Part shown: positions 1-50,883 of the stretch, one piece after another
Numbering within the stretch: position 1 is the first letter of the stretch
Layout: every line of letters starts with the position of its first letter
Source: Massalongia carnosa
Taxonomy: Eukaryota
Direction of reading: 5' to 3'
DNA length: 64,000 nt
Assembly: GCA_965645245.1 (NCBI GenBank)
Contig: OZ287069.1
Span: forward strand, 1 to 64,000
The notes under the pieces: model-generated
What the model saw: the letters and a program-made list of their open reading frames with translations, nothing else
Told to the model about the DNA's origin: nothing
Database searches by the model: none
Made by a program: the position numbers and the translations under genes

Positions 1-832
1 CCCTAAGGCGTACCCTAACCCTAACCCTAAGGCGTAACCCTAAGGCGTACCCTAACCCTAACCCCAAGGCGTAACCCTAACCCTAACCCTAAGGCGTAAC
101 CCTAAGGCGTAACCCTAACCCTAACCCTAACCCTAACCCTAACCCTAACCCTAAGGCGAACCCTAACCCTAACCCTAACCCTAACCCTAAGGCGTAACCC
201 TAAGGCGTAACCCTAACCCTAACCCTAACCCTAACCCTAAGGCGTAACCCTAACCCTAACCCTAAGGCGTAACCCTAAGGCGTAAACCCCTAACCCTAAG
301 GCGAACCCTAACCCTAAGGCGTAACCCTAAGGCGTAACCCTAACCCTAACCCTAAGGCGTAACCCTAACCCTAAGGCGTAACCCTAACCCTAAGGCGTAA
401 CCCTAACCCTAACCCTAAGGCGTAACCCTAAGGCGTAACCCTAAACCCTAAGGCGTAACCCTAAGGCGTAACCCTAACCCTAACCCTAACCCTAAGGCGT
501 AACCCTAACCCTAAGGCGTAACCCTAACCCTAACCCTAAGGCGTAACCCTAACCCTAAGGCGTACCCTAAGGCGTAACCCTAAGGCGTAACCCTAACCCT
601 AACCCTAAGGCGTAACCCTAAGGCGTACCCTAACCCTAAGGCGAACCCTAACCCTAACCCTAACCCTAACCCGTAACCCTAACCCTAACCCTAACCCTAA
701 CCCTAACCCTAACCCTAACCCTAACCCTAACCCTAACCCTAACCCTAACCCTAACCCTAACCCTAACCCTAACCCTAACCCTAACCCTAACCCTAACCCT
801 AACCCTAACCCTAACCCTAACCCTAACCCTAA
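1..832 (-). repeat. Telomere (left chromosome end): distal mixed CCCTAA/GGCGTAA tract (1-~645), proximal pure (CCCTAA)26 (677-832)
   Basis: C-rich strand at the window start. About 31 GGCGTAA units (a few GGCGTA/GGCGAA) counted by eye, each separated by at least one CCCTAA. One hybrid CCCGTAA at 670-676, then uninterrupted CCCTAA to 832. Confidence 0.97.
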
Positions 833-8207: not shown

Positions 8208-9362
8208 ATGAACACACGAGGACGAAGCGGCCAGAATTCGGCCAATCCCACGTCCAATCAGGGTGATGACCTACTGGACTACGATACGCTGGAACAAACA
8301 CCACCAAACCAGCTAATCGACGAGATTAGAGCCATGCAGGCCCATTTGACCGAACAGACAGCAGCCATGCAGGCCCAGGCCACCTTGTTGACTCAGCAAA
8401 GTACCCGTCTCGCTGCCAATGAAAGGGAATTAGAACGACTGCACGAGGAAAGAGAGTCTCGTCGTCCTCGCTCCATGGAACGATCTGTCAGGTATAACCT
8501 CAAAGCTAAGTCGCCCGACCCGTATTATGGCAAGGACCATAAGACCTTGTTCGAATTCACCAGACAATGCGAGGCTGTCTTTAACACTAGTGGCATGCCT
8601 GAAACGGAACAAGATCGTCGTATAGCCTATGCAGGCAGCTACCTTCGAGACACCCCTAGCGACAATTGGCATGAGATACTATCACGAGGGGGTCATCTGA
8701 ATCTTACCTGGAAGGAGTTCAAAAAGAACCTCATGAATCAACTAGGCTCTACAGAAGTTTTCAAAGATCGAACCTGGATGCAGTACCATCATGCACAACA
8801 ACGTCCCAATGATACTGTTCAATCCTTTGCGGCCTACTTACAACGCCTACGAACAATATTAGCCGATGCAGATCCGGAACATCCTATTACCGAAGAACAG
8901 ATGGTCCAGAAGCTTCGTACGGGAGTCATACCAATAATTCGGAATTCCTTAGCACTAGGTCATCGACATCCCGCTACCATAGCGGAATTCATCAGTGATG
9001 CACAACTAGCTGAGGGAGCGGCTGTTTTGCCATCATCAACAGGTAGAGGCTACTCCAAGCGGGAGCAAGGTGCCCCGGCTTCTAACGATCAGGGCCGCCG
9101 AGAACCATATCCAACTAATCATCGCGGAGGTCGAGGCGGAAGAGGTCATCGAGGTAGTCACCACGGAAGAGGCAATAGAGGCGGAAGAGGCCGAGGCGGC
9201 AGGAATGCGGCTCCGGCTGGTACTAGCGCGCCGTCGACCAATAGCAATGCCATTCCGCTAGGCACTGTGACCGAGATACAAGACAATAACAAAAATAGCT
9301 GCTATAATTGTGGATCCCTCGAACATTGGGTAAAAGACTGTCCCCATCCAAAAAAAGCATAG
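8208..9362 (+). CDS. gag: Gag with CCHC zinc knuckle
   Basis: 384 aa. PDPYYG capsid-like motif, RGG-rich region, CYNCGSLEHWVKDC. Confidence 0.93.
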   Translation: MNTRGRSGQNSANPTSNQGDDLLDYDTLEQTPPNQLIDEIRAMQAHLTEQTAAMQAQATLLTQQSTRLAANERELERLHEERESRRPRSMERSVRYNLKAKSPDPYYGKDHKTLFEFTRQCEAVFNTSGMPETEQDRRIAYAGSYLRDTPSDNWHEILSRGGHLNLTWKEFKKNLMNQLGSTEVFKDRTWMQYHHAQQRPNDTVQSFAAYLQRLRTILADADPEHPITEEQMVQKLRTGVIPIIRNSLALGHRHPATIAEFISDAQLAEGAAVLPSSTGRGYSKREQGAPASNDQGRREPYPTNHRGGRGGRGHRGSHHGRGNRGGRGRGGRNAAPAGTSAPSTNSNAIPLGTVTEIQDNNKNSCYNCGSLEHWVKDCPHPKKA

Positions 9363-12300
9363 TCGCCGCTGCTGCCTCCCTACCGGCGACTACTATCAAA
9401 GAGGCATCGGCAAGTCCTAAGACATTGGAAGTCGCACCCTGCATAGAGTACGAAATAACACACGCTAAAGAAACAGCAAAAGCACTAATTGACAGCGGAA
9501 GTGAAGTTAACCTTATTTCTAGAGCTTACGCAAATATATGCGCTCTGACAGTGTTACACTCCAGCGTCAGTTTGGAAGCTATTAATCACCAGCAAGTCAT
9601 GACACATGGCATGGGTCTGTTGGTGTTCGGGGTAACTGATCAATTAGGTCAGCAACGTTTCTTTGAGGAAACATTCCTAATAGCAGATATACCTCATAAT
9701 ATCGTGTTGGGCATGCCATTCCTGCAGCTAGCCAATCCCGATATCGATTGGTCAGCAAGGACCCTGAATTGGCGAGAACTAAGCGTTCAATCGGCCCTGA
9801 TGACTACTCATCGGATAGAGATTATAGAACCAGAAGTCTTCATAGAAGAGGCGTTATCAGAAGATACACCGACCTACGTGGTCCATGCTAAGGCGCTAGG
9901 TGTAGATAACATCCATTCAAGCCGTCGAGCTAGAATAGCCTCAGTGAAGGTACAAGAAATCAAGGTCCCTGAGGCTTATAAGGATTTCGCAGATGTCTTT
10001 TCGGAAGATAGTGCAGCCGAGCTACCAGAGCACGGGCTACATGATCATGCGATCGACCTCGTGGATGGAAAGCAGCCTCCATATGGACCTATTTATAGCC
10101 TATCAGAAACAGAGCTCACAGTGCTAAGGGCCTACCTCGATGCTCACCTGGCTAATGGGTTTATCCGGCCATCTACCTCACCAGCTGGAGCTGCTATTCT
10201 CTTCGTGCCTAAGGCAAATGGTACCCTGAGGCTCTGCGTGGATTATAGGGGTCTGAACAATCTGACAGTTAAAAATCGCTACCCGCTACCATTAGTAGGC
10301 GAGTCTTTAGATCGACTAGGACGGGCCAAACAGTACACCCAATTGGATTTGACTGCAGCCTATAATCGCATCAGAATTAAGAAAGGCGACGAATGGAAGA
10401 CAGCCTTTCGCACCCGATATGGCCATTTCGAATACTGCGTCATGCCGTTCGGATTATCCAATGCTCCGGCCTCCTTCCAAGCCTATATCAATAAAGCGTT
10501 GGCACTAAAACTGGATGTCTTCCGCATCGTTTATTTGGATGATATACTGATCTATACCGAACAGAAGGGTAAGGCCCATGAAGATGCTGTGCGATGGGTG
10601 TTAGAACAACTCCGCAAGCATGGCTTATTTTGTAACTTACAAAAATGCCGATTCAGCACCGACGAAGTCGAATTCCTAGGCTATGTCATCAATCCTAAGG
10701 GTGTTTATATGCGAAAAGATCGCATCCAAGCAGTGCAAAATTGGCCACGGCCCACATGCGTACGCGATGTACAGGTGTTCATAGGCTTCGCGAATTTCTA
10801 TAGACGATTCATTCGTGGGTTCAGTAAAATAGCAGGGCCACTTACCGCTATGCTGAAAACAAAGCCCGCTAATCATAGACAGAAAGCACCTAAGGGTGTC
10901 GAAAGCGAGTTCCTTACGGAGGAAGCTCTAGAGGCTTTTGAGAAGCTGAAAAAGTCGTTCATAGAGGCCCCGGTACTAAGGCATTACGATGCTAGTAAAC
11001 CAGTACGCGTGGAAACCGATGCGTCAGGTTATGCTATTGGCGGCATATTGGCTCAGCAAGATGACGAGGGACAATGGCACCCTGTTGCCTATTACTCACG
11101 CAAGATGCTACCGGCTGAGCGTAATTACGAGACCCATGATGCTGAACTATTAGCGATAGTCGAGGCCTTCAAAATTTGGAGACGTTACCTTGAGGGGTCG
11201 TCTCACGAAATTCTCGTGTTGACTGATCACAATAACCTTACGAGGTTTATGGATACCAAGCGCCTAAGCGGCAGGCAAGTAAGGTGGGCTCAAGAGCTTT
11301 CCAGGTATAATTTCCGCATCGATTATCGTCAGGGTAAGAGGAACCCAGCCGATGGGCTGTCAAGACCTCCTACCGCTGGCGATGATGATGGCGAAGTGCT
11401 GGTTGAAAACCGCAAAACGCTCCACCTTTTGCAGACATCCCTAGCAGATAAGAACGCACGCGTTTGTCTAATGAGGGCAATGTCAGGGGAGTCGTTAGAT
11501 GATGCTTCTGGCCCGACGGGGTCTCACCACGGTGAAATATGGAAGATCATAACATGCGGAACATTGGTTGTTCCGAAGGTGAAGGCATACTGGAGTTCAT
11601 TGCGAAACTCTCTCGCACAGCGCGAGTCACCTTATACTCAACCCGCTTCTAGGGGAGTATTAGAGCGTCTTCCTGAGTTGCAACAGGTTGACGAGGTCGC
11701 TATCACTGTTCGGAAAAGGTTAGCTACCTTGAAAGACAGTGACGTGTCGGGGACACAGGAGGTGGCGCCCTCCAGCGAGCCATGGTCGGACTCGGACCAC
11801 TGTCTATTCCATGAAGGAAAGGCCTACATCCCAGCCTCCTTACGAGGAGAAATTCTTGAGTTAAATCATGATGATCCGCTGGCAGGGCACTTCGGGAAAG
11901 ACAAGACGATTGAGCTAGTGAGTAGAAAGTACTACTGGCCATCGATGAAGTCAGACATAGCACGCTATGTAGAGGGTTGCGACGTCTGCATGAGTAGCAA
12001 AGCTACGAGGCATAAGCCTTATGGAAACTTGCAGTCGTTGCCTATACCAACTCATAAGTGGAAGGACATTACGATGGACTTCGTCACTGGCTTACCTAAG
12101 AGTAAGGACTGGAGGGGAGTTGATTATGACTCCATCCTAGTCGTCGTTGATAGGCTCACCAAGATGGTGCACTATGAGGCAGTGAAGAAAACGCTGACTG
12201 CTGAACAGTTAGCTGAAGTGCTAAGGCACTGCGTGTTCAAGTATCACGGCCTACCTGACTCCATAGTCACCGATCGGGGCTCGCTATTTACATCAAACTT

Positions 12301-13237
12301 CTGGTCATCCCTATGCTATTACATGAAGATAAAGCGTAGGCTAAGCACAGCCTTCCATCCACAAACAGACGGTCAGACAGAACGTCAAAATAGTACCATG
12401 GAAGCTTACCTTAGGTCTTACTGCCGTTTCGAGCAAGATGACTGGGTGCAATGGCTCCCTACCGCTGAATTTGCATACAATAACACCCGTCATTCAAGCA
12501 CCAAGCTCACCCCGTTCGAGGCTAATATAGGCTACCACCCAAGGATGAGTTATGAAGATAACCAAGACCCTCGATCGAAGTCGAAGACAGCTGAGGAACA
12601 GGCTAAAAATCTACGCAATTTGTTAGCAGAGTTGAAAAATAACCTGCAATTAGCCCAAGACAATCAAGCCAAATATCACAATAGAACGGTGAAAGAACGT
12701 TGCTACGCTCCCGATGATATGGTTTGGCTAAACAGCAAACATATTAAGACGAAAAGGAACAAGAAGCTTGAGCATAAGTTCTTGGGTCCCTTTAAGGTGT
12801 TGAGGCCTGTAGGCACTCAAGCTTACGAGCTAGAACTTCCGAAAAGTTGGAAAATACACCCAGTCTTTCATGTGTCTCTACTGGAAAGAGACACCACCAG
12901 AAGGGAGGTAGTAGACGAACAAATGGCTGAACAGCTTGAATTCGAAGACGATGACATGCAAGAGTATGAAGTAGAGTGCATACGAGATAGTGCAGTCTAT
13001 GCAAAAGAAGCAGAAGACGGACGACCGGCTGGATTATATTATCTAGTGCATTGGAAAGGTTATCCCGACGCGGAAGACACATGGGAGCCCGTCGCCGGCG
13101 TCAAACATCTACGAAAGCTATTGAGGGAATTTCATGAGAAAAATCCTACCAAGCCAACAGCAAAGTCCACCCCTCAGGCCACTAGGACTCCCTCATTAGC
13201 GAAAGAAACAGGACGACGCACAAAGAGGACTAAATAA
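9308..13237 (+). CDS. pol: Pol (protease-RT-RNase H-integrase-chromodomain), -1 frameshift from gag
   Basis: ALIDSGS, YLDD, ETDAS, SIVTDRG, TDGQTER, GPF, YLVHWKGY. Slippery A AAA AAA just before the gag stop; pol is in the -1 frame. Confidence 0.96.
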   Translation: MWIPRTLGKRLSPSKKSIVAAAASLPATTIKEASASPKTLEVAPCIEYEITHAKETAKALIDSGSEVNLISRAYANICALTVLHSSVSLEAINHQQVMTHGMGLLVFGVTDQLGQQRFFEETFLIADIPHNIVLGMPFLQLANPDIDWSARTLNWRELSVQSALMTTHRIEIIEPEVFIEEALSEDTPTYVVHAKALGVDNIHSSRRARIASVKVQEIKVPEAYKDFADVFSEDSAAELPEHGLHDHAIDLVDGKQPPYGPIYSLSETELTVLRAYLDAHLANGFIRPSTSPAGAAILFVPKANGTLRLCVDYRGLNNLTVKNRYPLPLVGESLDRLGRAKQYTQLDLTAAYNRIRIKKGDEWKTAFRTRYGHFEYCVMPFGLSNAPASFQAYINKALALKLDVFRIVYLDDILIYTEQKGKAHEDAVRWVLEQLRKHGLFCNLQKCRFSTDEVEFLGYVINPKGVYMRKDRIQAVQNWPRPTCVRDVQVFIGFANFYRRFIRGFSKIAGPLTAMLKTKPANHRQKAPKGVESEFLTEEALEAFEKLKKSFIEAPVLRHYDASKPVRVETDASGYAIGGILAQQDDEGQWHPVAYYSRKMLPAERNYETHDAELLAIVEAFKIWRRYLEGSSHEILVLTDHNNLTRFMDTKRLSGRQVRWAQELSRYNFRIDYRQGKRNPADGLSRPPTAGDDDGEVLVENRKTLHLLQTSLADKNARVCLMRAMSGESLDDASGPTGSHHGEIWKIITCGTLVVPKVKAYWSSLRNSLAQRESPYTQPASRGVLERLPELQQVDEVAITVRKRLATLKDSDVSGTQEVAPSSEPWSDSDHCLFHEGKAYIPASLRGEILELNHDDPLAGHFGKDKTIELVSRKYYWPSMKSDIARYVEGCDVCMSSKATRHKPYGNLQSLPIPTHKWKDITMDFVTGLPKSKDWRGVDYDSILVVVDRLTKMVHYEAVKKTLTAEQLAEVLRHCVFKYHGLPDSIVTDRGSLFTSNFWSSLCYYMKIKRRLSTAFHPQTDGQTERQNSTMEAYLRSYCRFEQDDWVQWLPTAEFAYNNTRHSSTKLTPFEANIGYHPRMSYEDNQDPRSKSKTAEEQAKNLRNLLAELKNNLQLAQDNQAKYHNRTVKERCYAPDDMVWLNSKHIKTKRNKKLEHKFLGPFKVLRPVGTQAYELELPKSWKIHPVFHVSLLERDTTRREVVDEQMAEQLEFEDDDMQEYEVECIRDSAVYAKEAEDGRPAGLYYLVHWKGYPDAEDTWEPVAGVKHLRKLLREFHEKNPTKPTAKSTPQATRTPSLAKETGRRTKRTK

Positions 13238-16584: not shown

Positions 16585-19165
16585 GAGTACGGATACGTGG
16601 ATACCCCTTTGGCTACCTGGTCACCCCCTGAGGTTACCTGGACACCCCCCAGTGATACACGGACACCCCCTTCCTAGAATAGGTAAGAATCAAGGGTTCA
16701 GCCCCCTCACTTACCCACTTCGGGGTAAGCTCCCGAAGGTGCACCTCGGGAATTTTATTTCAACCGTAAACACCAACATTTTGGCACTTCGTAAACATCA
16801 TCATCACCAACATTTTGACACTTTATCATATCTGCACCACCTCCTGACCCCCCACCTCCTGCCCACCTCCTGACGGACTTGCACCCCTCGAAGATGAACC
16901 AGCTACTCTACCCCGACCACCTGGCCCTCTACCCCCTGGCGAACTTGCACCCCCCGAGGATGGACAAAGTTTTGAAAGTCTGGAAGACCTGGTTCTACGA
17001 GTCAATGAGCATGCTGGTCGTCAAGGATACGCAGTCGTTTTGGGTCGAACCAAGAAGTCGAAACTTAAGGTAACAAGAAAGGCATGGCTGATATGTGATC
17101 GAGGAAGAAAAACCGACGGACCAAGAGGTCAGGATCGGCGACATACGGGTAGCCGACGAATTGAATACCCTTTCTCTTGTGTGGCCACACGAGAAAACGA
17201 CAGAGGTATCTGGTTTTTGGAGGTGGTCAAATCGACTCATAATCATGCTTCTACCCTCGCTGGTGCTTATCCAGCGTTGATGAAATTGGCGATGACGAAA
17301 GAGGTTAAAAGTGAGATTTCCCGAGCTCTGATCGTGCAAACAGCCCCTTTCAAGATTTTATCTAGTCTTCGTGTTGCTGATCCGACGACGGGAATCAATT
17401 TTGACGATCCAGAAAATCCCTACATCATCAATCCCTTATTCAAACCTCGGGATATCTACAACGTCAAAGCACAGCTTCGTCGCGAGACACTCGGCCCATT
17501 GACTCTGGTTCAGGCATTAATCCGAGAGCTGGATCAAGGAGATTGGACGTATCAGATGCAAAATGATGATCTAGATAGAATAACTCATTTATTCTTTATT
17601 AAGGGCTGTTCTCAACGACTATTGAAGACGAATTACGAGGTGTTGGTAATGGACGCCACTTACCAAACCAACAGATATAAGATGCCCTTATTGATCATCA
17701 GTGGTCAAACCGCCCTACATACCAACTTCTATGTGGCATTTTGCTTCATGGCCAAGGAAGCCACGTCTGATTATACCTGGATGTTGCAGCAATTGCGAGG
17801 TATGTATGATGGGATGATGCTTCCTAACCCGATCGTCATAGTCACGGACATGGAAAAGAGTCTGATAGCTGGAATTGAGGATGTTTTCCCCGCAACCAAT
17901 CATCTGCTTTGCTTATGGCACATCAATAATAACGTCCTGACCAATTGCAAGAAGAGCTTCGATACCAAAGAGGCGTGGGACTCCTTCTTCGCTGACTGGA
18001 AAACGGTCGTTTATGCCTCGTCAGAACCAGAGTTTTTGGAGTCATGGGAGCGATTCAGGATTCAGTATCAGGGTCAGGATCAATTTGTGGAATATCTAAA
18101 CGACATCTACATACCCTTCCGACATCGTTTTGTCAAGTGCTATACCAGTATGATTACTCATTTCGAAACCACCACTACCTCTCGAGGTGAAGGTGGGCAT
18201 GCAGTACTTAAGCGACAGCTAGGGTCATCATCTGGAGATCTTAAGACGGTGGTGGACGGAATCAATCTTCTATTGATCAATGAACTTCACAATCATCTGA
18301 TTCGTCTTGATGAAGCGAAGGTGCGACTACCTATGGATATTCGCATACCTATCTTTCAGGAAATCAGTCCATACGTCACTTCTATGCTTTGAGAAAGATA
18401 ATACCTCAATACGAACGTTTGGTTGGTCAACCATCAGCTATTCCGGCCTGTACTGGAACGTTCAGTTTAACCATGGGTCTTCCGTGCAGTCATAAGATTC
18501 AGGAACGATTGTATTGGGATGGGGGGGGAAAGTTGCTATTGGAAGAAATTCATCCTCATTGGAGGTTTGATAGGACAGCCCGTGTGGCTATTGATAATCC
18601 TTATCTTCGGGTTCAGGCACCCGAAGTTGCTAGACCAAGGGGCAGACCTCCAGGTGCGGAGAATTTGAATAGAAGACAGCAAGCATTCGAGGCATCTACT
18701 AATCGTGATCCTTCCCTTTTCGAGCGGGTGGACCCGGATGCAGATCAATCAGCCGTTCATCGAGCGGACCCGGCACCTGGTCGTGGACGAGGCAGTATAA
18801 CAAGGGGATTGGCAGATAGGCTGACTACAAATGACTCGGAGGCGGGGACGGCGACAGGGGGGGGGGGACGGCGACAGCAAGCGGAGATGAGGAGGTTATC
18901 ATCATTAATTAGACCAAATGAGGCTTAGTTTCTAGAATCAGAGTCTGATTTGCAAAGACAGTGCCAATCGACTTCGTTTCAGAAATTCCCGACCACTTTC
19001 AAAAGTTGAAGGAAAAAATTGCCCCGATATGCGCCCGGGAGCTTACCCCGAAGTGGGTAAGTGAGGGGCCTGAACCCTTGATTCTTACCTATTCTAGGAA
19101 GGGGGTGTCCGTGTATCACTGGGGGGTGTCCAGGTAACCAAAGGGGTGTCCACGTATCCGTACTC
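16585..19165 (+). mobile_element. Mutator (MULE) DNA transposon nested in the Helitron
   Basis: ~150-bp TIRs GAGTACGGATACGTGG... / ...CCACGTATCCGTACTC. 8-bp TSD TCTTTACC (16577-16584 / 19166-19173). The left TIR has a ~22-bp internal duplication. Confidence 0.93.
17040..18928 (+). pseudogene. MULE transposase with a frameshift near 18385
   Basis: FAR1/WRKY-like N-terminus (C...HNH), VMDATYQTN, IVTDME, CLWH, TSRGEGGH; SWIM-like GLPCSH in ORF 18389..18928. The frame extends upstream of 17040. Confidence 0.9.
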
Positions 19166-22526: not shown

Positions 22527-24854
22527 ACGTAGCTCACTGGGCAACGGGACAAACTGGGCAACGTGACTAAGTAATTCCGAAATCATCACTTTTTGACCAC
22601 TCTAGATTATGAAGCCTTCATTACATACATTTTACATACAAATTCAGCTTCAGATATCACAGTAGATTATATACATCATTTTGAAACTCTACAATCATGG
22701 GTATAGATAATAAACCACCTCCCACAAAACCTCCATTCCTTCATGTTTTCACCCCACCTCCACCTATCAACAACGATTACAGTCAGCCTTTTTGGCCTGG
22801 AAACAGGCCGATAGAGCTCTTTCCATTACGAAGGCAGCTTTTCTATATGATGTTTCAAAGTCTACCCTTCATGCCCGCATTCAGGGTCGTCAACCACGAT
22901 TTACGTCTGATCAACTTAAATAACAGCTGACCCCCGAGGAGGAGGACGCTTTGAAAAACTGGGTTTTACAACTGTACGCCTGGGGCTGGCCTGCTAAAAT
23001 AGCTCAGCTACGTCAGATGGCCATAGAATTACTACGAGCAAGGGGGAATCATACTGTGCTAGGAGTCAATTGGCAACAGTATCTTTTGCATCGTTATCCA
23101 GATCTGCAGGCTAAATACAGTCGCACACTAGATCATGAACGATTATTCGCTGAGAATGAAGAGATATTTCAGCACTGGTTTGACCTTTTCCTCTCCATGA
23201 AAGAAAAGCACGGAATTCTTGATGAAGACATCTACAACATGGACGAAAAGGGAGTCATGATAGGGGTAGCTGCTAGTGCTAAAGTAGTAATTTCTAAGCA
23301 CGAAAAGCAAGCCTTTTCAGCACAGTCAGGTAATCGAGAATGGGTGTCATTGATCGAGTCCATTTGTACTACCGGTCGAAGTTTACCTCTTTTCGACATC
23401 TTCAAAGGAGTCAACAAGCAAAAGGCCTGGTACGATGCACTAGAGGACATTGACACTGAAATAGCTACCAGCGAAATCGGATGGATAGATAATGAACTAG
23501 GACTTGCTTGGTTGAAAAAGTGTTTTGAACCTGCCACTGCAAAATATCTACACGGTGAATATCGACTTCTTATAGTAGATGGTCGTGCTTCCCATATTTC
23601 TACCGAATTTATCAAGTTTTGCGACGAAAAGAAAATCATTCTTTTGTGTCTACCTCCACATACTACCCATATGTTGCAAACTCTGGACGTGAGTGTTTTT
23701 GGGCCCTTATCACGGGAGTACAAAAAACAATTGGAGGTCGTCACCCAATTCAACGTCTGTTCAGTGGACAAGGTAGATTTTTTGAAGATCATTCAAAAAG
23801 CAAGAACAGAAGCAATCAATACAAAAAATGTGCTGACTGCATGGAGAGCAACCGGATTAGTACTATACAATCCGTCATCAGTTCTTCAAAAACTCACTAA
23901 TAAACAATCGGTGTTGTGAAAGACTGATAGCATCACCACTACTACCACCACACCACCACCACTACCACTACTACTACCACCACTACGAATATCACCTCCT
24001 CTTATCCTAACAACTCCGACTACCCTTCAAAACTCTCACGAAATTGAAAAGACACCTGCAAATATCGATCAAATAAATCAACTGATTCGTCGAATTCGAA
24101 ATGATGAAGAATCAGACTCGACTCCCGTTCGAGCGCTAAATAAATTGATAAAAGGCGCTAAATATGCCTTCGCAGACTCTACCTTACTACGTATCACCAA
24201 CAACGAGCTTCTTCAGGCCAATGTACGGCGCCATCATCGAGCCAATCGTAGCGGGGCTCCCTATGGAGGAAAGGCTCGAGTTCTAAGCCTTGAAGACGTT
24301 CAACAAAGACAGCAATGGGCCAAAGATAAACAAAAGGTAAAATACAGAAAAAAGAAGGCCGCTTAGCTAAAACGAGCTGAGCAGGACCTTATCAAAACTT
24401 TCAGGGAAATGTGTCGATTTGGACCTGATTTACTCTGACAAACGTCTACTGCATCTTCGACGAAAAGTCCTCAGAAAAGTCCTCAGAAAGCACCTGATAG
24501 TTCACAAAGTAAACCTATTTGTTCTATTCAAAGACGATTACTACATCCTCCCGTGCTTCAACCAATGACAGAAGAGGTAGAGGGGGTGGAGGAGGTAAAG
24601 GTGAGTAGGGGGTTAGAGGTGGAGGTGGAGGTGGTAGAGGAGATAAAGAAGGTTCAAACTACCAGACGGGGTCGTATTATACGTCAACTACGTAAAATGT
24701 GATTAAGTTGCATACAGACAAAGTATGAATTTCACGTCTAATAGACATTGAAGCCGAATTTGTATGTAAAACGGGTGAGAGGGAGGCTGTAGAAATTAAG
24801 CGAAATTTAGTTAGTCCCGTTGCCCAGTTTGTCCCGTTGCCCAGTGAGTTACGT
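22527..24854 (+). mobile_element. Fot1/pogo-type Tc1-mariner DNA transposon nested in the MULE
   Basis: ~48-bp TIRs ACGTAGCTCACTGGGCAACGGGACAAACTGGGCAAC... containing an internal direct repeat. TA TSD (22525-22526 / 24855-24856). Confidence 0.95.
22697..24366 (+). pseudogene. Fot1/pogo DDE transposase with stops and frameshift
   Basis: HTH/CENP-B-like region (VSKSTLHARIQG...LTPEEEDAL), YNMDEKG, LLIVDG, HMLQTLDV. Stops at 22921, 23917 and 24364. Confidence 0.9.
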
Positions 24855-29253: not shown

Positions 29254-30561
29254 TTGCCCACCCGTTACATTACGAACACCTCCCCCATACCTCAAGTGGT
29301 CCTTCGTCCCCAGGTCCTTCTCCCGAAAAGGATGACCTCCAGCTTCTCCGCCGAGGCATCTACCTCTCTCTCCGAAGGCCAGACCTTCGATCTTCCCCCT
29401 CCGGACTTCAAAAACGAAGCCTCTCTTGCCCCTCACGTCATCACGCCTGATGCTTGGAGCCACTCGATCCAGAAATTTCCCCACGAGTGGTACAATTTTT
29501 CTATTCAAGCTGCCAATCAGATCACGTCCCTCTCGAGCTCCCTGGACATAAAAACGAGTCAGTGCGAGTCTTTAGAATCGGAGCGTGATCAAATCCGCCG
29601 TCAGCTGCGTGACTCCAATGACGAGCTGATCGCGGCTCGAGCCTTGATCATCAGCCTTCGCGGACACCCATCCCCCATCAGCCACGCAGACTCCCGATCG
29701 GAGAGACTCCCGGATATTCCCAAGTTCTCGGGAAAGAAGGAGGATTTACGTTCCTGGACAACCCAACTGCACTTGAAACTTTTCGTCAATAAAGACCGCT
29801 TCACCGGAGAAAAATCAGGACTCATCTATGCTATCAGCCGATTGGAGGGGCGTGCGCTCTCCCAGGTACAACCGTATGTCAAGTCACAGCACGAAATCTC
29901 TCTGCCGGATGTACCGTCCCTCCTGGTGCTGTTGGACCGTGCGTTCGGGGACCCTGACCGAAAGGCCACCGCGCAGCGTGAGCTGCGTGCCCTTCGTCAG
30001 GCAAATCGAGAGTTCCATGTGTACTTAGCAGATTTCCAACGCATCGCCCCGGACACCAATTTTGATGAGGAAGCTCAACGCGCTGCCCTGCAACAAGGTA
30101 TCAGCGAAGAACTTCAACAGCTAATGGTAACGCAGCTGGTCCCGGAGGACCTCAACGAGCTGATCTCGTTACTGCAACGGCTAGATACTCGCCAGCGCAA
30201 TGTCAATGCCCTGCTCCGGAAGCCCTACTCGCCCCGGTCCGCCCCATCTTCTTCTGATGCGGGGACCACACTTCGTAACCCTCCGTCTGGGGGGGTTGCC
30301 CTACCCCGAACCGTCTTCCCCGCCGCTGCCGCTCCCGCCTCGCCTCCAGACGCCATGGACCTCTCCGCCTTCTCTCGAGGCAAGTTATCCTCGGCGGAAG
30401 TAACTCGTCGTATGAACGAGGGGCTGTGCCGTTACTGCGGGGAGTCCGGGCACTTTGCGGCCAACTGTCCCAAACTGGCACGAGGGGGGAAACCCAAGCC
30501 GTCACGACTCAACGAGTCTACCCTTGCGGAGTCGACGGAAAACGCTGTGTCTTCGAGCTAA
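29254..30561 (+). CDS. gag: Gag (first ATG ~29332) with CCHC knuckle
   Basis: IPKFSG, AMDLS, CRYCGESGHFAANC. Confidence 0.93.
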   Translation: MPTRYITNTSPIPQVVLRPQVLLPKRMTSSFSAEASTSLSEGQTFDLPPPDFKNEASLAPHVITPDAWSHSIQKFPHEWYNFSIQAANQITSLSSSLDIKTSQCESLESERDQIRRQLRDSNDELIAARALIISLRGHPSPISHADSRSERLPDIPKFSGKKEDLRSWTTQLHLKLFVNKDRFTGEKSGLIYAISRLEGRALSQVQPYVKSQHEISLPDVPSLLVLLDRAFGDPDRKATAQRELRALRQANREFHVYLADFQRIAPDTNFDEEAQRAALQQGISEELQQLMVTQLVPEDLNELISLLQRLDTRQRNVNALLRKPYSPRSAPSSSDAGTTLRNPPSGGVALPRTVFPAAAAPASPPDAMDLSAFSRGKLSSAEVTRRMNEGLCRYCGESGHFAANCPKLARGGKPKPSRLNESTLAESTENAVSSS

Positions 30562-33500
30562 GTCGCTCTCGAAGACCGACGGAAGGATTTCCTGTGTCAA
30601 TTTCGGCTTTTTCCATATCAGAAGACTCGTTAGATGGTAGACATTTCGTCGTATCCATAGAACTCTCTGTAGAAAATCGCGTTTTACACACACATGCATT
30701 AATAGATTGCGGCGCTTCTGGCTATGCATTCATTGATTCGTCCTTCGCGCAAAGAAATTCCCTGCCTCTCACCCCCCTTGTCCGCCCTCGCGTTCTCGAA
30801 GTTGTGGACGGCCGACCAGCCGCGGCTGGTATGCTCACACACCTGGCCAAGTTGAAGATGAACGTCAACGGGCATCACGAGCACGGCTCATTCCTTGTGA
30901 CCCAGTTGGGTCACTATCCGGTAGTCCTGGGAGTCAAATGGCTTCAAATTCACGACCCTTTCGTCAGCTGGTCTCGAAATACTCTGACCTTCTCGTCCTC
31001 GTATTGTCGTCTGGAGTGTTTAGAGAATAAACACGTCCCTCTTGTTATTCCTGGCCTTTCTGATCTTTCCGAAGAGTCTCCTCCCCCGGAGTCTGCTTCC
31101 TCAGTGCGTCTTGACCCTCTTGAAATCCGTGAGAACAAGGTCTCTCACGCGAATCCTGAATTCTTGAAACCCACCGAGTTTATTGAACATATCGAGTTTA
31201 TTGAACATCCCGAGCCCATGATCCGAGTCCCGAGTTCACGTCTTGAACCCCCGAAAATCACCAAGTACACTGAACACTCTCAGCCTCCGAGTCTCGTCCC
31301 AGAACTTAAGAAGTCCAGCGCCTTGCCCATGAAAATCTGTATGATAGGAGCCGCGCCATTTTCCACCCTGATGAAGGATCGAAAGAACGAAATCTTCACT
31401 GCGTCCTTGTACGAGATCGAAAAAGCCATACAAGCCTTGAAAAACCCGAGCAACCTCAGCCTTGCAGCCGCATCTCTGGATGATGTGGCCAAATCCTTGA
31501 AACCTAAGAGATTCATCGATCCTGCTACCGTAGTACCCGAGGAATTTCATGATCTCCTGGACGTGTTCTCCAAACAAGAGGCCGATAAACTGCCTCCGCA
31601 TCGTTCATACGATCACAAGATCGTGTTGATGGAGGGCGCAGTTCCTTCTTCGGGTCCTCTATACAAGATGTCAGCTCCCGAGCTTTTAGTTTTGCAGAAA
31701 TATCTCAAGGAAAACTTAGCCAAGGGATTCATTCGAGCCAGTTCCTCTCCTTGTTCCTCGCCGGTATTGTTCGCACGAAAGCCTTCAGGCGGACTGCGAT
31801 TCTGTGTCGATTACAGAGCCCTGAACGCGATCACCGTAAAGAATCGCTACCCAATACCCCTGATTCAGGAGACCCTCGATAGGCTCGCAAAAGCCGTTAT
31901 ATTCTCGAAATTTGATATTGTAGCGGCTTTCAATAAGCTGCGCATGCAGAAGGGACAGGAATGGATGACGGCCTTCAAAACAAGATATGGGCTTTTCGAG
32001 TATGATGTTCTTCCTTTCGGATTGTCTGGAGGTCCTGGATCCTTTCAGCATTACATTAACGATGTACTCCGCGAATATCTAGACGCCTTTTGCACCGCGT
32101 ACATCGATGACATCTTGATTTACAGTAAATCGAGAAAAGAACACAGTATCCACGTAAGAAAAGTTTTAACAGCTCTACGAGAAGCGGGGTTGCAACTGGA
32201 CATTGAGAAATGCGAGTTCTTCGTCACCGAGACAACATATTTGGGATTGATTATCTCCAATAAAGGAATAAGAATGGATCCTCGCAAAGTTCAAACCATC
32301 AAGGACTGGATCACGCCCAAGAATGTTAAAGATATTCAAGCCTTTGTAGGATTCGCGAACTTCTATCGCCGTTTCGTCAAAAACTTCTCCGCCATTGCCG
32401 CACCCCTGATAAAGCTGACTCGAAAGAGTGTGATCTTTTCTTGGAATCAGGAATGCGAGACCGCATTTCAAAGATTAAAGGACGCGTTCATGAGCGACCT
32501 TGTTCTGATGCATTTTGATCCTGAGAAAAAGATCGTTGTAGAAGTTGACGCCTCGGATTGGGTAGTGGGGGGAGTGCTCTCGCAACATGACGACGAAGGA
32601 ATTCTAAGACCTGTGGCATTCTTCTCAAAGAAACACTCACCAGCGGAAGTAAATTATGAGATTTATGATAAAGAGCTTATGGCTATCGTTCGTGCCTTTG
32701 AGGAATGGAGAGCTGAACTCGAAGGAGCCGCATTTCCAATACAAGTAATTTCCGATCATAAGAATCTGGAATATTTCATGACAACGAAGCAATTGAGTAG
32801 AAGGCAAGCACGCTGGTCCGAATATCTTTCTCGTTTTGATTTTCAGATTGTGTACCGCCCAGGGAAGAGTGGCGGAAAGCCCGATGCCCTTACCAGAAGG
32901 TCTCAAGACCTACCTGAGGGGGGGGATGATCCACGAGTGAAGATCCAACATCAAACGGTCTTGAAACCTCGAAATCTTGAACTTCTAGCGAACGGGTTAG
33001 CAAAGGAATCTTCGGAAGAGAACGATATTGAATCAGGTTTAGATCAAGAGGAAGTCAAGACCCTGGAAGAATTATGGCAGGAGGCTCTGAAAAATGATCC
33101 TTTCCCTGTCAAGATACTGAACCTGTTGCGGTCAGGAGCAAGGCACTCCAAGGATATCTCGTTAGCGGAATGCACCGAAATCAACGGTCGATTACACTAT
33201 CGAGAGAAAATGTTCGTTCCCGACTCTCATGCTTTGAAAATGAGGCTCTGCGAGTCTGTTCATGATAGTCCAGTGGCAGGTCACCCCGGCCGAGCCAAGA
33301 CCTTTGATCTTTTACAGCGCCACTATTACTGGCCTCGATTTTATCAGTTCGTAGCGAAGTATGTACAGCACTGTCAAGTATGCGCACGAAGCAAATCATC
33401 TCGTCAAGGGAAAATGGGAGTTCTCAGACCACTGCCCATTCCCGAGCGTCGCTGGCAAGATATCTCAATGGACTTTGTCACTGGACTGCCGGAAAGCAAT

Positions 33501-34517
33501 GGATTCGACGCTATACTGGTCGTGATCGATCGTCTGTCGAAAAGACGTCACTTCTCTTCATGTCTCACTACAATCAACGCTCAAGAATTGGCTGAGCTCT
33601 TTCTTCGGGATATCTGGAAACTCCATGGACTACCAAGCACCATTGTATCAGATCGAGGAGTGCTTTTCGTGGCGGAGTTTTGGAAAAAGCTGTGTCAAGG
33701 GTTGGGAATCAAGAGTCTTCTGTCGACAGCCTTCCATCCAGAAACAGATGGGCAGACGGAGCGAGTAAATGCCTCCATGGAACAATACCTTCGCAGTTAC
33801 ACGGATTATCTTCAGGATGACTGGGCAAATTGGTTGCCCATGGCGGAATTTACAGGAAACAATGTCGTGTCCGAAACGACTGGGTGCAGCCCTTTTCTTG
33901 CGGAGATGGGATACCACCCGCGTATGGGATTTGAATCAATGGAACCCTCTAGGTCCCCGGCCAGTTTGAACGCAGGGGATTTCGCCAAGAAAATGCAAGA
34001 TATCACGATCGTGCTGCAAGAGGAAATGAGATTCGCGCAAGCACGATACGAAGCAGGGGCCAACGAAAATCGCGTGCCAGCACCGGTTTATCAAGTAGGA
34101 GACGCAGTATGGCTAAGCACAAAAAACATACGTACACAACGACCCGCTCGAAAGCTCGATTGGAAGAATCTAGGCCCATTCAAGATATCTAATGTGGTAA
34201 GCAAGTATGCGTATCGACTCGATCTCCCCATCGGCATGAAGATTCATCCCGTGTTTCATGTATCTCTTCTCTCGCCCGTGCCTCAAGATCCTCACCCTGA
34301 TCACGTTCCACCTCCTCCTCCACCAGTCGAAGTTGACGGCGAAGAGGAGTATGAAGTGGAGGATATCCTCGATTCTAAGAAGTTCCGGAATCGCTTGAAG
34401 TATCTGGTGCAGTGGATCGGTTGGAACGACCCCACCTGGGAGTACGCAGAGTACGTCATCAATGCCAACGAAAGAGTAGCAGACTTTCACCGACGATATC
34501 CAGAAAAGCCCCGATAA
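30426..34517 (+). CDS. pol: Pol (protease-RT-RNase H-integrase-chromodomain), -1 frameshift
   Basis: ALIDCGA, YIDD, EVDAS, IVSDRG, TDGQTER, GPF, YLVQWIGW. Candidate slippery site G GAA AAC at ~30537-30543. Confidence 0.96.
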   Translation: MPLLRGVRALCGQLSQTGTRGETQAVTTQRVYPCGVDGKRCVFELSRSRRPTEGFPVSISAFSISEDSLDGRHFVVSIELSVENRVLHTHALIDCGASGYAFIDSSFAQRNSLPLTPLVRPRVLEVVDGRPAAAGMLTHLAKLKMNVNGHHEHGSFLVTQLGHYPVVLGVKWLQIHDPFVSWSRNTLTFSSSYCRLECLENKHVPLVIPGLSDLSEESPPPESASSVRLDPLEIRENKVSHANPEFLKPTEFIEHIEFIEHPEPMIRVPSSRLEPPKITKYTEHSQPPSLVPELKKSSALPMKICMIGAAPFSTLMKDRKNEIFTASLYEIEKAIQALKNPSNLSLAAASLDDVAKSLKPKRFIDPATVVPEEFHDLLDVFSKQEADKLPPHRSYDHKIVLMEGAVPSSGPLYKMSAPELLVLQKYLKENLAKGFIRASSSPCSSPVLFARKPSGGLRFCVDYRALNAITVKNRYPIPLIQETLDRLAKAVIFSKFDIVAAFNKLRMQKGQEWMTAFKTRYGLFEYDVLPFGLSGGPGSFQHYINDVLREYLDAFCTAYIDDILIYSKSRKEHSIHVRKVLTALREAGLQLDIEKCEFFVTETTYLGLIISNKGIRMDPRKVQTIKDWITPKNVKDIQAFVGFANFYRRFVKNFSAIAAPLIKLTRKSVIFSWNQECETAFQRLKDAFMSDLVLMHFDPEKKIVVEVDASDWVVGGVLSQHDDEGILRPVAFFSKKHSPAEVNYEIYDKELMAIVRAFEEWRAELEGAAFPIQVISDHKNLEYFMTTKQLSRRQARWSEYLSRFDFQIVYRPGKSGGKPDALTRRSQDLPEGGDDPRVKIQHQTVLKPRNLELLANGLAKESSEENDIESGLDQEEVKTLEELWQEALKNDPFPVKILNLLRSGARHSKDISLAECTEINGRLHYREKMFVPDSHALKMRLCESVHDSPVAGHPGRAKTFDLLQRHYYWPRFYQFVAKYVQHCQVCARSKSSRQGKMGVLRPLPIPERRWQDISMDFVTGLPESNGFDAILVVIDRLSKRRHFSSCLTTINAQELAELFLRDIWKLHGLPSTIVSDRGVLFVAEFWKKLCQGLGIKSLLSTAFHPETDGQTERVNASMEQYLRSYTDYLQDDWANWLPMAEFTGNNVVSETTGCSPFLAEMGYHPRMGFESMEPSRSPASLNAGDFAKKMQDITIVLQEEMRFAQARYEAGANENRVPAPVYQVGDAVWLSTKNIRTQRPARKLDWKNLGPFKISNVVSKYAYRLDLPIGMKIHPVFHVSLLSPVPQDPHPDHVPPPPPPVEVDGEEEYEVEDILDSKKFRNRLKYLVQWIGWNDPTWEYAEYVINANERVADFHRRYPEKPR

Positions 34518-45007: not shown

Positions 45008-48000
45008 TGTGGGTTTACCCCAACTCATGGCACCAGACGTATGACTACGTCAGTGCTTGAGTTGGATGGTAAAGTTGTTCTATTAGCTAGTAGCGAGCGT
45101 GGGCTATATAGGCGTGTGCCCCTTTTCGGGGTCACGTGGCTGACTAGGCGTCCCGTGCCTAACAGTGACGAAGGCCTTAATAGCCTCTAGTCGTGCCCAC
45201 AGCCCGTTCTATCTACTAGTGCTACTAACACTGGAACCACTTAGAAAAACGAAATAAACCCCCTCTATGCCTCGATGCCGGGTTGCATCTATGCCTGCTG
45301 TCCCCCTACGCCCGGCTTTGCTTGCCTGTGTGAGGCCTCATATAGCGTCTCACTCAACCCAACTCGCAACTGACATAGCGCGGCCTCAGGTTCATTGAAC
45401 ATCATCACCCTGCCATTTTATCGCCGCCCTACAGCCTGATGCTCGTTCTACCCACTCGGTCGTATCTAGGTTGATGCGATTAGTATCAATCACCGTTTTG
45501 AGGGCCGAGGATGCCTTTGTCTTGGTCATGGAGTCGGCGGGGTTGTTGTGGCCATGAATCCATTTCACCTCGGTCACCTCACGTCTCTCGTATGACTGAC
45601 GGAGACTCATGACATCAATCATTAAGAGTTTCTCTTGGGTCGTCCCGAGTTTTACTAAGCAGTCATATAGCGATTTTGAATCCGTGCAGAGAATCAGTGG
45701 AATGTCGGTTCCGAGAAGTTTGCTAAGGGTTGCCTTTATGACGGCCCCGATATTGAACCCATGTGCCATGCCATATAGCTCGGCGGCCAAGACACTCCGC
45801 GTCACCCTTTTACACTTAATTGATGACCAATGAATGACGTTGGCTTTGTCAGTCGAGTCAGCAAGGCATATGACATCACCGATTTGTGATGAGAGGTCTC
45901 GGTTGTTGGCAAAGGATGAATCGGTGAAAACGACCAACTGAAGGCTGTTTCGATCGAGTTTGACGTATTTCAGCCCTCGGGATTGATTGTCTATTTGCCA
46001 CTTAAGTCGCTTGTTTAGGGCATTGATATCATCTGAGGAGAACTTTGTTGACTGAGCGGCATAAGATAGATCGAAAGAGGCCTCGGGCTGACAGATGGAA
46101 GCTGTGTATGCACCTCTAGCTCGTTGGGCCACATATTGCTCTCTCGAAGACAACTTTTCTCGAACGATGCCTCGCGAGCTAGTTGTCGAGGCGTCATGAT
46201 TCTTAACCAGCGAGATGCCTCCAACACGAGTTTCCTGGCTCAACATGATGTCTCTGCTCGGGGCGAGTCGGATCATGGTGCCATTGAACTTGATTGGGGT
46301 TTCGAGGATGAGATGAGTGCGCTCTTTAGTCATGATCTTAGCCTTCTTGATAGCATCTTCTTCTTCGGCCGAAAAGGTGTCGCTTGCTAGCATAAGGGTG
46401 TCGTCAGTTTGTAGGCCAACGATGCCAATAGGCTCGGATTTGTAGAGTAGGCATGGATCGTAGGTTGACTCGGTCATGCCGAGTTTTCTAGTATGATGGG
46501 CATGATACGTGGCGAACCAATGATTGCCTGCTTCCGGGACGCCATAGAGAGGTTTTATGACTTTCAGGATGCAGTTGGATGGAGCTCCCATCATCGCGGT
46601 GAGTTCATGAGGCGGGCGGATGTAAAAGTCACGATTCAACTCGGAATTTGATTGAACGTATGCCTGAGTGACGTCGCGAAGGTATAGCTTTGTTGACTCA
46701 TTTTGAAATGTTGCTGTGAGGCAGATGATAAGACGTTGACTGACTCGTTGAATTGTCGGTGACTGTGTCAGAACGAGGTCTTTATTGAGGTCATTGTAGG
46801 CCTGTACGACCAGACGTGATTTCTCGAAAGACTTATCGGTGCCAGGATTCTTTATTTCGTCAACAAACCTCGAGTTGAAAACGCGTGCGTCATCTGGAAC
46901 GTCTTCAGAATTTACGAGTTTGAATACACCTTTTTCTAGAAGTCCGGCGACTTCCTTTTGCCTCGATGAGGTGAATTGGGGTAATTTCGAGATGTCGTCA
47001 TCATTATCTTCAGGAGTATCGATGACGAAGCAGATGTTGGAAGGCGTAGTGAAATTGACATGTTCGGGATGCTTTCTGGGTCTTCCACGGCCACGTTTGA
47101 CTGGTGCTGATGGTGCTGATGAAGGTGAGGCAGTCGGGGCAATGATTCCCGAGACGAGGGGATTCGTAGGAGGGGTGTCTCTTGCATCGATCGAGGGAAC
47201 ATGTCCCGAGGTGCGAGGGTTAATAGATGAGGCATCTCCTGTACCATCATCTATACGTCCTGCACCAACGTCGGCGTCTCCTGCGCTTTCGTCATCTTTT
47301 TCATCTTTATTTGTATCCTTCATGCCATCAGCAGCAAGGTCGTAGTACGGTTTCAACGAGGTGGAACGGAATTTGGTGGGTCCGCTCGACAGCTCGATGA
47401 TAGCCGACTCGCCTTGTAGGCTGAGAAGTTTGTATGGTCCCTTCCACGTCCCTGATCGACCTGCATTGCCTTCTCGGAATACTAGCACCGGCGAATTGAT
47501 GGGCAAGTCGTGAATCAAGGTGGTGGACGGGCCGTTTCGAGTGTTCAATGCATCATTAACCTGACGAGATGCATGCAGCTTGCGTACCTCCTCCATAGCC
47601 TTTCTCATGGCTATCGTGCGTTGGGTGATTGTAGGCGAGGGAGCATCCATTTCAGTCATTCTCGGGTAGGCACCGAACACAAGCAACGTCGGAACTAGAC
47701 CATTCGGTCCTACCGAGTCGTTGAGTGCCTTGAATGCCATTTGTAGGGCCAACTCGGGCTCGATTCCGGGAATTTCGGCAGTTATGATGCTATATGCTCG
47801 ACGAAGTGGTCCATGATAGCGTTCAACTAGACCGATGGAGTGATGCGCTTCGACGGGGACGTTTTTGACAATGATTCCCATGTTTGCAGCATATTGTCGG
47901 AATTCCCTGGCCATGAACTGTTTGCCTGCATCGGCCGAGATGAGGTCGGGGGGGCCGAGATAGGTATCGATCCAACATGCCCGTAGCTGATCCCATACAT

Positions 48001-50883
48001 GTCTGGCGGAAATGTCCTTCAGCCACCGTCCTGCTTGAAATCGAGTTGCCTCGTCGACTAACTGCAGCACCGCCTTGCCTTCTATGTAAAGAATATCGAC
48101 GACAATGTGGTAATTAAACTCGACGTCATCTTTTATGGTAAAACCGAACCTGCCTGGCGACTTTCCGTGCTTCTGACAATGGTGGCAATATTTAACGAGG
48201 TATTCTAGGGCTCGAAGGTCGACATCATGACCTGATCGCTCGAGAATCCGATGTAGGCGCGAGACTGGTGGGTGCCCGAAGCGACGATGTAGTCGGCGGA
48301 GCTCGGTGGTAGTTAAGAAGCATGGATTTTCCGAGAATGATTCAATCGCGAGGGCATATGCGGATGTGCACCATAAAAGAAACGCATGACCATACCGGCG
48401 AATCACAGGATGAGTATGTTGGGCCTGAACAACTTGATTGGTTAGGTTATTGAAGAAGGCACCTAGCTTGTCCATGTCGGCGAGGCAGAGGAGAAACGGC
48501 GTATTGACTCGTACTATATGAAAGACGATTCTTCCTATGGGGGTATTCAGGTTGGCCGTGCCGATTGAAGACGTACTACCGATACCAAAGACGAAATTTG
48601 CTGACCCAGCCGTTGTCTCGTCGAGTTTTATCGAGATGATCTTCTGCAAGGCCTTTAGCTGCCCAATGCCACCGGTTGACCGAGTTGCAGCACCGGAATC
48701 GATCAGTAGCCCTTTAAACTCGGACTCGTCGTAGCGAGTGTCGGTTGACGTGATAATACTGTAGGGCACTGAGACGGGGGCGATGGTATTGTCTGACCAA
48801 GTTATGCGATGTTCGAAGGCCTTATTGGTCAGCATGTTGATCGCATTAATAGACTCAACTGCATGAAGGGTGCCAATCGAGGTATGAAACATCTCGGTAG
48901 CGACCTCTGCATCAAGAGAAGGGTCTTTTGCCTCGATGGACAGGTCTCCGAAAAAGTGAGCTATTTCGTCTTCATCTTCATCATCGCCCTCATAATTAGC
49001 GATGTATTGACGAAGATTGCGTTCATAGCCTGAGCGATTTTTGTACTTGGGATGCCTATCTCCCCAGCGCTTCTTGGAGTCCTCCTGTTCTTTCGATGAG
49101 TGGTTCGTTGACCAGCATCCTTCTTCATCGCATACGAAGCAGCGTTTTTGACGCATTGGGCCACGAGACGGGTTTCGAGACTGGTTTCGAGATGAATAAC
49201 TTGATCGGTTGAAACGTTGTCCGCCGCGAGAGCGAGGGTTGAAACCGCCTCGGCGATACTGCCGATCGGTGAAGAAAGACTCCACATCGTCCTCATTCTC
49301 GCCTAGATAGCTCCCCTGCGCGGACTTATGCACCGCTTCATAATTGACGATTGAGGCATAGAGGTTATTGACCAATCCTGGTGTGTCCTGTGGTGGATTT
49401 GTTAAACCGGCCGCGAGTGCTGGGTGACCCCTACAGGCCCGAATGATGTTTTCTTGCAGATGAATTGACCCGTGATATGCCGTGTTGATGCCTCGTTGTA
49501 TCGTGTCCAGCTCGGTGCATAGCTTTCTGAGACACTCGGTTGTCGACAGCGAGGGGTTGGCCGAGATAACATCGGTCAGGGAGATGGTTTGCCACTTTGC
49601 CAGATTGTAGCGTTCCCACTCGGGCCCTTCAAAGAATGTCCTCATGTTTTGACAGAAATCATCAAACGACGCGGCGGAACCTCGATTTGCATAGTAATGA
49701 GTCAATGCCTGACCAGAAAGCATAATCGAGGCTCCATGAATGAACGCGATATGAGGTAGTCCGACTCGCCTGCATTTGTCGAGGAATATGGTGAGTTTGA
49801 AACCGAAGTTGTCGCCCGTGCCACTAAACTTGTCGTTATCCTTGTAGATTTTCTCTAGCAGAGTCAATTCCTTGGCGTATTGATTGGTCGAGTTCTCCTG
49901 AAATTGATGATGAGGCGTTTGATGCGATGATTGACTCGGAGGTAGTTGTTGCGAGATCTGCTGAGTAAATTGTGGGGACTGCGACGCGAGGGGTGCCTGA
50001 GGTATGTACGGATTTGGTGATGCAGACTTATGCAATGGGGTCTGGAGTCTCGTATCCTGGTACGATTTTGTTCTCGGATCCGCAGATAGACCTCGCGAGT
50101 TTGCAGCGATGAGATTTAGGTTATCTAACTCGATGATGCTCATGAGTTCTCGCTTTGGGTCGAGGGTTTTCTCGGATAGATGTTTATATCGTCCTTGAAC
50201 CCATTTAATTTGTTCGAGAGTCCAGTCCAGTTCCCATTCCGTGTTGATAGCCTTTCTCATGAAGGATGCGCGAGTCCTGCCGGGCCCGTAGTTGTGATCG
50301 ATCCAAATGCCGTGTTGATAGCAGTAGGCCTTTACGAGTTCCCAGGTGTCTCGATCGAATTTGTTGAAATGCTCCTCTTTGAAGTGCTCGAAGTTTCCCT
50401 GGACGATATTCCATAGATAGTAGTCCTCGTAGTCATTGTCTGCGTATCTTTGGAAGTGATATTTAACATATTTCTTGATTGTCTCGGCATCGGCCGTCTC
50501 CGGATCGATGCCGTTGGGAAAGGGATTTGTTGACTCGGTTGACTCGATCGCGTTTTCGGCGTTCGGAGCAACGCTCGGAGAACCTGCCATAGTCAGCGAT
50601 AGCGAGGTTTTCAGGTTTTAATGATTGGGGTATTCTGATCTGAATAGCTAAACTAATCAGTGTGGGTTTACCCCAACTCATGGCACCAGACGTATGACTA
50701 CGTCAGTGCTTGAGTTGGATGGTAAAGTTGTTCTATTAGCTAGTAGCGAGCGAGGGCTATATAGGCGTGTGCCCCTTTTCGGGTTCACGTGGCTGACTAG
50801 GCGTCCCGTGCCTAACAGTGACGAAGGCCTTAATAGCCTCTAGTCGTGCCCATAGCCCGTTCTATCTACTAGTGCTACTAACA
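45008..50883 (-). mobile_element. Full-length Ty1/Copia, fungal GalEa-like (5876 bp)
   Basis: 223-bp LTRs 45008-45230 and 50661-50883 with 3 substitutions seen. TSD CTGAA (45003-45007 / 50884-50888). CTGATTAG follows the 5' LTR in place of a tRNA PBS. Confidence 0.95.
45392..50590 (-). CDS. Copia Gag-Pol polyprotein (1732 aa)
   Basis: [14 protein letters not shown] knuckle, LLIDSGA protease, HRRFGH...CHHC + DDE integrase, [27 protein letters not shown] and NPADSMTK RNase H, in Copia order. Confidence 0.96.

Follow-up and report, generated by a model that had tools for sequence, protein, structure and literature searches.

The closest parallels to the telomere array considered here come both from altered telomerases and from errors made in the reading of telomeric repeats. 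In budding yeast, telomerase RNA mutants that read through the template boundary are reportedly due to Tzfati et al. in 2000 and Seto et al. in 2003; a weakened boundary helix is said to lead to the copying of bases 5' of the template, with the result that non-telomeric bases follow a complete repeat. We know of no natural case of template-boundary read-through at telomeres of the TTAGGG type, and a natural template-boundary mutant would be very rare. Excess telomere length is a known effect of unrecognised repeats in template mutants; for comparison, a normal whole telomere in filamentous ascomycetes measures ~100–200 bp, 156 bp being typical. Errors in nanopore reads of telomeres are, in the parts of two studies drawn on here (PMC9414165, PMC12455769), strand-biased, different from read to read and interspersed with correct repeats, and they can shift the length of the unit from 6 bases to 5 or 7. 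In three human nanopore data sets, reads laden with such miscalls make up 40–60% of the telomeric reads, according to the part of the first of these studies that we draw on (PMC9414165).

The array described below stands at the start of a 64-kb stretch of DNA, the whole of which is called the window. It combines a block of ordinary repeats with a longer outer block into which a second unit, GGCGTAA, is set at intervals. The chromosome end itself is probably real, and consists of about 26 canonical TTAGGG/CCCTAA units on a truncated copy of a transposon. Our interpretation of the variant units leans towards an artefact.

Two zones in one telomere array

The array occupies positions 1–832 in C-strand orientation, starting at the first base of the window, and the non-repeat flank begins at 833. 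A run of CCCTAA at the start of a sequence, on the C-strand and followed by unique DNA, is the arrangement of a canonical TTAGGG-type chromosome end. Greedy parsing of positions 1–840 into units gave 101 CCCTAA, 24 exact GGCGTAA and 12 other tokens, all on the + strand, the start of the flank at 833 being counted as one of the 12. The array consists of two sharply different zones, since 677–832 is free of variant units. The distal zone (1–676, + strand) contains 74 CCCTAA and 31 units of the GGCG type, GGCG(T)A(A), which read TTACGCC on the G-strand; these comprise the 24 GGCGTAA, 4 GGCGTA (at 7, 44, 559 and 622) and 3 GGCGAA (at 155, 300 and 640). The proximal zone (677–832, + strand) is made up of 26 perfect CCCTAA units, with neither a variant nor an anomaly. 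Variants thus account for 31 of the 105 distal units and for none of the 26 proximal ones; at the distal fraction of 0.295, a series of 26 successive normal units has a probability of 1.1e-4.

The distal zone is also the noisier. In addition to the short variants, the parse found CCCCAA at 62, an extra AC at 286 and an extra A at 445, and at 670–676, where the mixed zone switches to the pure one, it found a hybrid unit, CCCGTAA, with the CCC of a normal unit and an inserted G like that of the variant. Off-grammar tokens number 12 in the 676 distal bases, compared with none in the 156-base pure block. One base is missing from 7 of the 31 variant units, whereas an anomaly of any kind affects only 3 of the 74 normal units (Fisher p = 0.0067), and the variants that are one base short are consequently 6-mers again. 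The variants are therefore confined to a noisy zone in which the length of the unit is unstable, as is to be expected of an artefact. Beyond the array, positions 827–2430 were compared with contigs from the public sequencing runs X1, X4, X5 and X7, which carry four organism labels. The 1,600 bases that follow the array are free of indels relative to X1, X4 and X5; X7 alone shows one, an inserted A at 999, and the other differences from the run contigs in those bases are substitutions. Intact transposon open reading frames of 1,309, 1,363 and 1,732 aa are present in the window, and within the mixed zone the six-frame ORFs reach at most 36 aa, too little and too simple a sequence to be of use in a protein search for further ends.

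The order of the units in the mixed zone follows a rule. A sequence-only reading of this DNA had claimed about 31 GGCGTAA-type units, never adjacent to one another, separated by 1 to ~7 CCCTAA and lacking a higher-order period, and this description is borne out in each respect. The count is 31, provided that the seven short units are included; there is no adjacent pair among them (P = 2.9e-6 if the 31 variants and the 74 normal units were ordered at random); and the CCCTAA spacers between them are 1–7 units long, with a mean of 2.4. Tandem Repeats Finder, run on the array, returned only a period of 6 and a loose period of 25 (80% matches), so that there is no real higher-order repeat. Ten spacers are one unit long, eight are two, eight are three, one is four, two are five, none is six and one is seven, which is near to a geometric law starting from 1 (expected 12.7, 7.3, 4.2, 2.5, 1.4 and so on; chi-square ~4.6, 2 df). 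The density of variants is even, with 7, 8, 8 and 8 units in the successive quarters of 1–676. In 31 of 31 cases the variant is followed by TTAGGG, and it retains the TTA start. An order of this kind, with variants non-adjacent, TTAGGG always next and spacers near-geometric, could be produced by one template. A templated two-unit telomere would also be expected to carry the variant throughout the array, old proximal repeats included, and here it does not. With 26 pure units on its proximal side, this telomere does not carry the variant as a steady-state property, and the pure block likewise contradicts a two-motif telomere that would be steady-state and species-wide.

A Bsu36I site, CCTNAGG, arises at every CCCTAAGG. 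It had further been proposed that the variant gives the G-strand a fold-back. That proposal finds no backing in the calculated energies: in DNA folding, 150 nt of the mixed G-strand reach −9.7 kcal/mol against a shuffle mean of −18.3 (z = +3.5), the pure strand giving 0. The mixed strand is thus predicted to fold more weakly than its own shuffles, and the model contains no special hairpin.

Searches for the motif elsewhere were largely negative. In the 64-kb window, GGCGTAA occurs outside the array at two sites (38676 and 56582), in unrelated contexts, and TTACGCC does not occur on the + strand; no donor variant array, no template-like site outside the array and no Rfam family, hence no telomerase RNA, was found in the same 64 kb. 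The 19-base string c-V-c, in which c is CCCTAA and V the variant unit, has one match in JGI metagenome contigs and none in prokaryote genome contigs or viral contigs, and the 19-nt string was not found as a gene-like site in the metagenome, genome and viral collections scanned. The metagenome match (L001, 600–730) is a degenerate interstitial telomere-like tract of TTAGGG, TTTAGGG and other units, in which c-V-c occurs once, by chance. Two matches of a V-c-c string among genome contigs lie inside bacterial MAG contigs and were rejected as chance. No array of the motif was found in the scanned collections, which are poor in fungal chromosome ends, and since they hold so few of these their silence is weak evidence. 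A full-text search for telomere papers with any rotation of the 13-base c+V unit found none, and returned primers and one aptamer only; papers on Peltigera and Trebouxia, in the parts drawn on, report nothing unusual about mycobiont telomeres.

The word content of positions 1–1300 was also compared with public runs. The share of these words is 0.44, 0.44 and 0.43 in X1–X3, which have one organism label, and 0.26–0.29 in X4–X7, which have four others; the values then reach a plateau near 0.13, and the small shares of X8–X20 carry no weight as evidence. By make-up, 0.345 of the words are unique, 0.117 are pure telomere, 0.279 are clean variant and 0.235 contain anomalies, and unique words that avoid the seven differences common to all four compared runs amount to 0.211 of 1–1300. 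A share of 0.44 corresponds approximately to the transposon and pure-telomere words together, with little left over for variant words, although other splits are possible, depending on how the words were sampled.

The flanking transposon and the junction

The first gene past the telomere, and the first unique sequence, is an ORF of 478 aa at 994–2430 on the − strand that belongs to a high-copy element and encodes a DUF6589 protein (PF20231, E 2.7e-60). Its only named relatives in a protein search are from Teloschistes exilis and Icmadophila ericetorum, both lichen-forming ascomycetes, at 61–62% identity, which makes a lichen-type filamentous ascomycete the likely host and renders plausible the mention of filamentous ascomycetes in the sequence-only reading. 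The closest relatives of the protein are the 72 members of one cluster, which come from ENA contigs of 1.3–3.8 Mb, and the clusters of the DUF6589 family in a protein atlas come from Basidiomycota, Mucoromycota and Arthropoda only.

The element is present in all four of the compared runs at 95–99% identity, and its differences from the window are common to all of them. To the left of 831, the copies of the flank in four of the four runs run on into element sequence and not into telomere. Since copies elsewhere extend past 831 into the element, the copy in the window is a truncated one capped by the telomere. It should be noted that the run contigs match other copies of the element and not this junction, and that contigs drop rare variants. 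At the junction (831–834, as defined by the flank copies in the four runs), the window copy and the other copies have only the AA at 831–832 in common; this is TT on the G-strand, where telomerase could have primed. Judged from these alignments, the junction looks like a healed chromosome break, with de novo telomere addition onto a broken copy of the transposon.

The element (833–2430) is extremely abundant in X1, with a word depth of ~17,000 in a run of 814 million letters, and it is also found, with the same consensus differences, in X4, X5 and X7 (lichen metagenome), under three other organism labels. Its spread over the runs may reflect either a fungus that commonly co-occurs in the samples or an element that is shared. 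At approximately 9 of the 16 sites where the window copy differs from the shared consensus, as read from X1, the window shows T or A and the consensus C or G, which fits a C-to-T type of decay (RIP-like or deamination) of the telomere-adjacent copy. The whole 64 kb is rich in transposons of the gypsy, copia, MULE and DDE_1 types, which lie densely, and with long open frames, at 5700–64000. An ORF scan placed gypsy gag/pol at 8208–13237 and 29254–34517, a copia-type polyprotein at 45392–50590, MULE transposases at 17040–18392 and 60886–62157, and DDE_1 at 22951–23919; no ordinary host gene was recognised among the scanned ORFs of the window.

Origin of the variant units

On balance, we consider it probable that the outer 676 bases come from a read extension with low coverage and no polishing, and that a systematic miscall runs through them. 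The 26 canonical units would then be the true, well-covered telomere, beyond which the assembler would have extended the contig with the tail of one read, or of very few long reads, past the point where most end; assemblers favour the furthest-reaching read. Ordinary CCCTAA would there have been miscalled as GGCG(T)A(A), systematically and in a read-specific way, and base modification or damage might be the trigger. Each miscall event would cover about two units, and it is this assumed footprint that would keep the variant from ever being doubled. We infer the low coverage, the platform used for sequencing and the occurrence of a miscall, and we use them here to account for features that can be read directly from the array and the searches: the array has two zones and a particular pattern of noise, and neither the collections nor the papers that were searched contain the motif. 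Several of these features favour a miscalled tail. The sharp switch, 156 bp from the junction, is where coverage and polishing would drop. The hybrid CCCGTAA at the switch looks like a half-corrected variant, and alternation of the variant between 6 and 7 bases is expected if a true 6-mer has been mis-decoded; the instability in length and the hybrid unit both favour an artefact over telomerase. The contrast between the distal noise and the clean 1,600 bases downstream also counts for it, as do the traits of published nanopore telomere errors given above, how common such reads are and, weakly, the lack of other sightings of the motif.

Set against a miscalled tail is the fact that GGCGTAA is not among the described nanopore artefact motifs (CTTCTT, CCCTGG, TTAAAA and CCCTAGG), and a systematic miscall is unlikely if the assembly was made from PacBio HiFi reads. 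A plain per-unit miscall alone does not predict the strict non-adjacency of the variants, and the molecule would need to have had a telomere ~5 times the length of the pure block, unless the call was inflated. Added to this is the consideration that a telomerase model fits the grammar without extra assumptions. On such a model, which is possible but to our minds rather unlikely, the variant units are real and telomerase very recently began to read ~4 nt past its template boundary. After ...GGGTTA, at a rate of ~0.42 per cycle, GGCG in the RNA would be copied as CGCC before a restart at the 3' end of the template, and the outcome would be TTACGCC and then always TTAGGG; the longer, 19-nt template of the sequence-only reading is the same idea. 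A change of the boundary element or of the template, affecting this individual or one lineage of its nuclei, would be the origin, and the purity of the 26 proximal units requires that it be recent. The over-long telomere would be accounted for if proteins that count telomere length bound the variant poorly. What speaks for read-through is the grammar itself: the absence of adjacent variants, which random order makes so improbable, the spacers that start at 1 and fit a geometric law, the even density along the 676 bp, and the TTA start with TTAGGG next in every case. There is also precedent, in the parts of the sources drawn on here, in the naturally mixed telomeres reported to be 'turning over' in Mimulus (PMC12455769) and in Neurospora crassa, in which expression of a template-mutant telomerase RNA together with the wild-type one leads to mutant repeats at, or close to, the 3' end, the layout seen here (PMC3592445). 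The grammar nevertheless favours telomerase only modestly, since miscalls that depend on context can follow the same rules.

Of the earlier proposal that a single-template telomerase makes both units, the predicted grammar agrees exactly with the array; a standing property of the telomerase is argued against by the purity of the 26 proximal units (P ~1.1e-4) and by distal noise that restores 6-mers. The same pure block rules out a long-standing trait, and read-through would accordingly require a rare, recent event to have been caught in a natural sample. To account for the 7 of 31 variants that lack a base, the enzyme would have to be imprecise or further read errors would have to be invoked, and a telomerase model accommodates the hybrid at the switch only ad hoc. 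It is also not self-evident that a 3' end which, after CGCC, has no complementarity to a template of C, U and A only should always restart perfectly, and the motif was not encountered independently in the collections and literature searched. We regard it as doubtful that a wild lichen-type ascomycete, or a nuclear lineage of one, harbours a natural boundary read-through telomerase that has just begun to act and has let the telomere grow to ~5 times the normal length. Other explanations that take the DNA to be real, either as captured by recombination or as canonical bases that were modified and misread, seem to us improbable. In the former case, another variant array or an extrachromosomal telomeric circle would have served as donor, and recombination or break-induced replication would have placed a copy of it, the distal array, on a normal telomere. 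The two-zone structure and the excess length would fit such a capture of foreign repeats, but rolling-circle copying or unequal exchange should leave a higher-order period, of which there is no sign, and neither the window nor the scanned collections contain a donor array. Alternatively, the stretch might be chemically modified, for example by methylation of the C-strand, its bases being canonical and only misread. Each variant unit makes a single CpG, as might be the case with a basecaller that allows for methylcytosine at CpG sites alone; this hypothetical modification, however, overlaps with the miscalled tail that we prefer.

The array would be of interest in either case. Were the units real, they would represent the first case of a natural TTAGGG-type telomerase that adds a second, C-containing unit by boundary read-through, and with the old pure repeats still present it would offer a direct view of the evolution of telomere repeats and of the effects of a variant on length control. 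If, as is more likely, they are an artefact, then chromosome ends in long-read assemblies can carry, beyond a well-covered canonical block, false repeats that obey rules and look biological, and such ends are unfit for inferring telomerase templates without the support of raw reads.

Comparison with described systems

Among the described systems, errors in nanopore calling of repeats (Tan et al. 2022, PMC9414165; Topsicle 2025, PMC12455769), as set out in the parts of these studies drawn on, resemble the array in presenting a C-strand array with a consistent wrong unit among correct ones. They differ in that the four units described, listed above, occur mostly in runs, and the same parts include neither GGCGTAA nor strict non-adjacency. 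The Mimulus lewisii telomere of AAACCG and AAACCCG, known to us as cited in part of PMC12455769, is comparable in having two unit lengths in one array, which are attributed to a template in transition. Its units are one base apart and the data are species-wide, whereas the units in the window differ in 4 bases, their mix is distal only, and they are known from one end.

The template-mutant telomerase RNAs of Neurospora crassa (Qi et al. 2012, PMC3592445) are likewise from a TTAGGG-type filamentous ascomycete. In the part of that study used here, mutant and wild-type units are mixed at or near the distal 3' end and the old proximal repeats are unchanged, as in the window. The N. crassa mutations are engineered single-base insertions, with no more than 3 consecutive mutant repeats and in ~20% of clones (PMC3592445, same part). 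By contrast, the array in the window has a 4-base replacement of GGG in 31 units over 676 bp, and it comes from a natural sample. The boundary mutants of budding yeast with which we began are different again from the array in the window, being reportedly laboratory-made and set among the irregular repeats of yeast.
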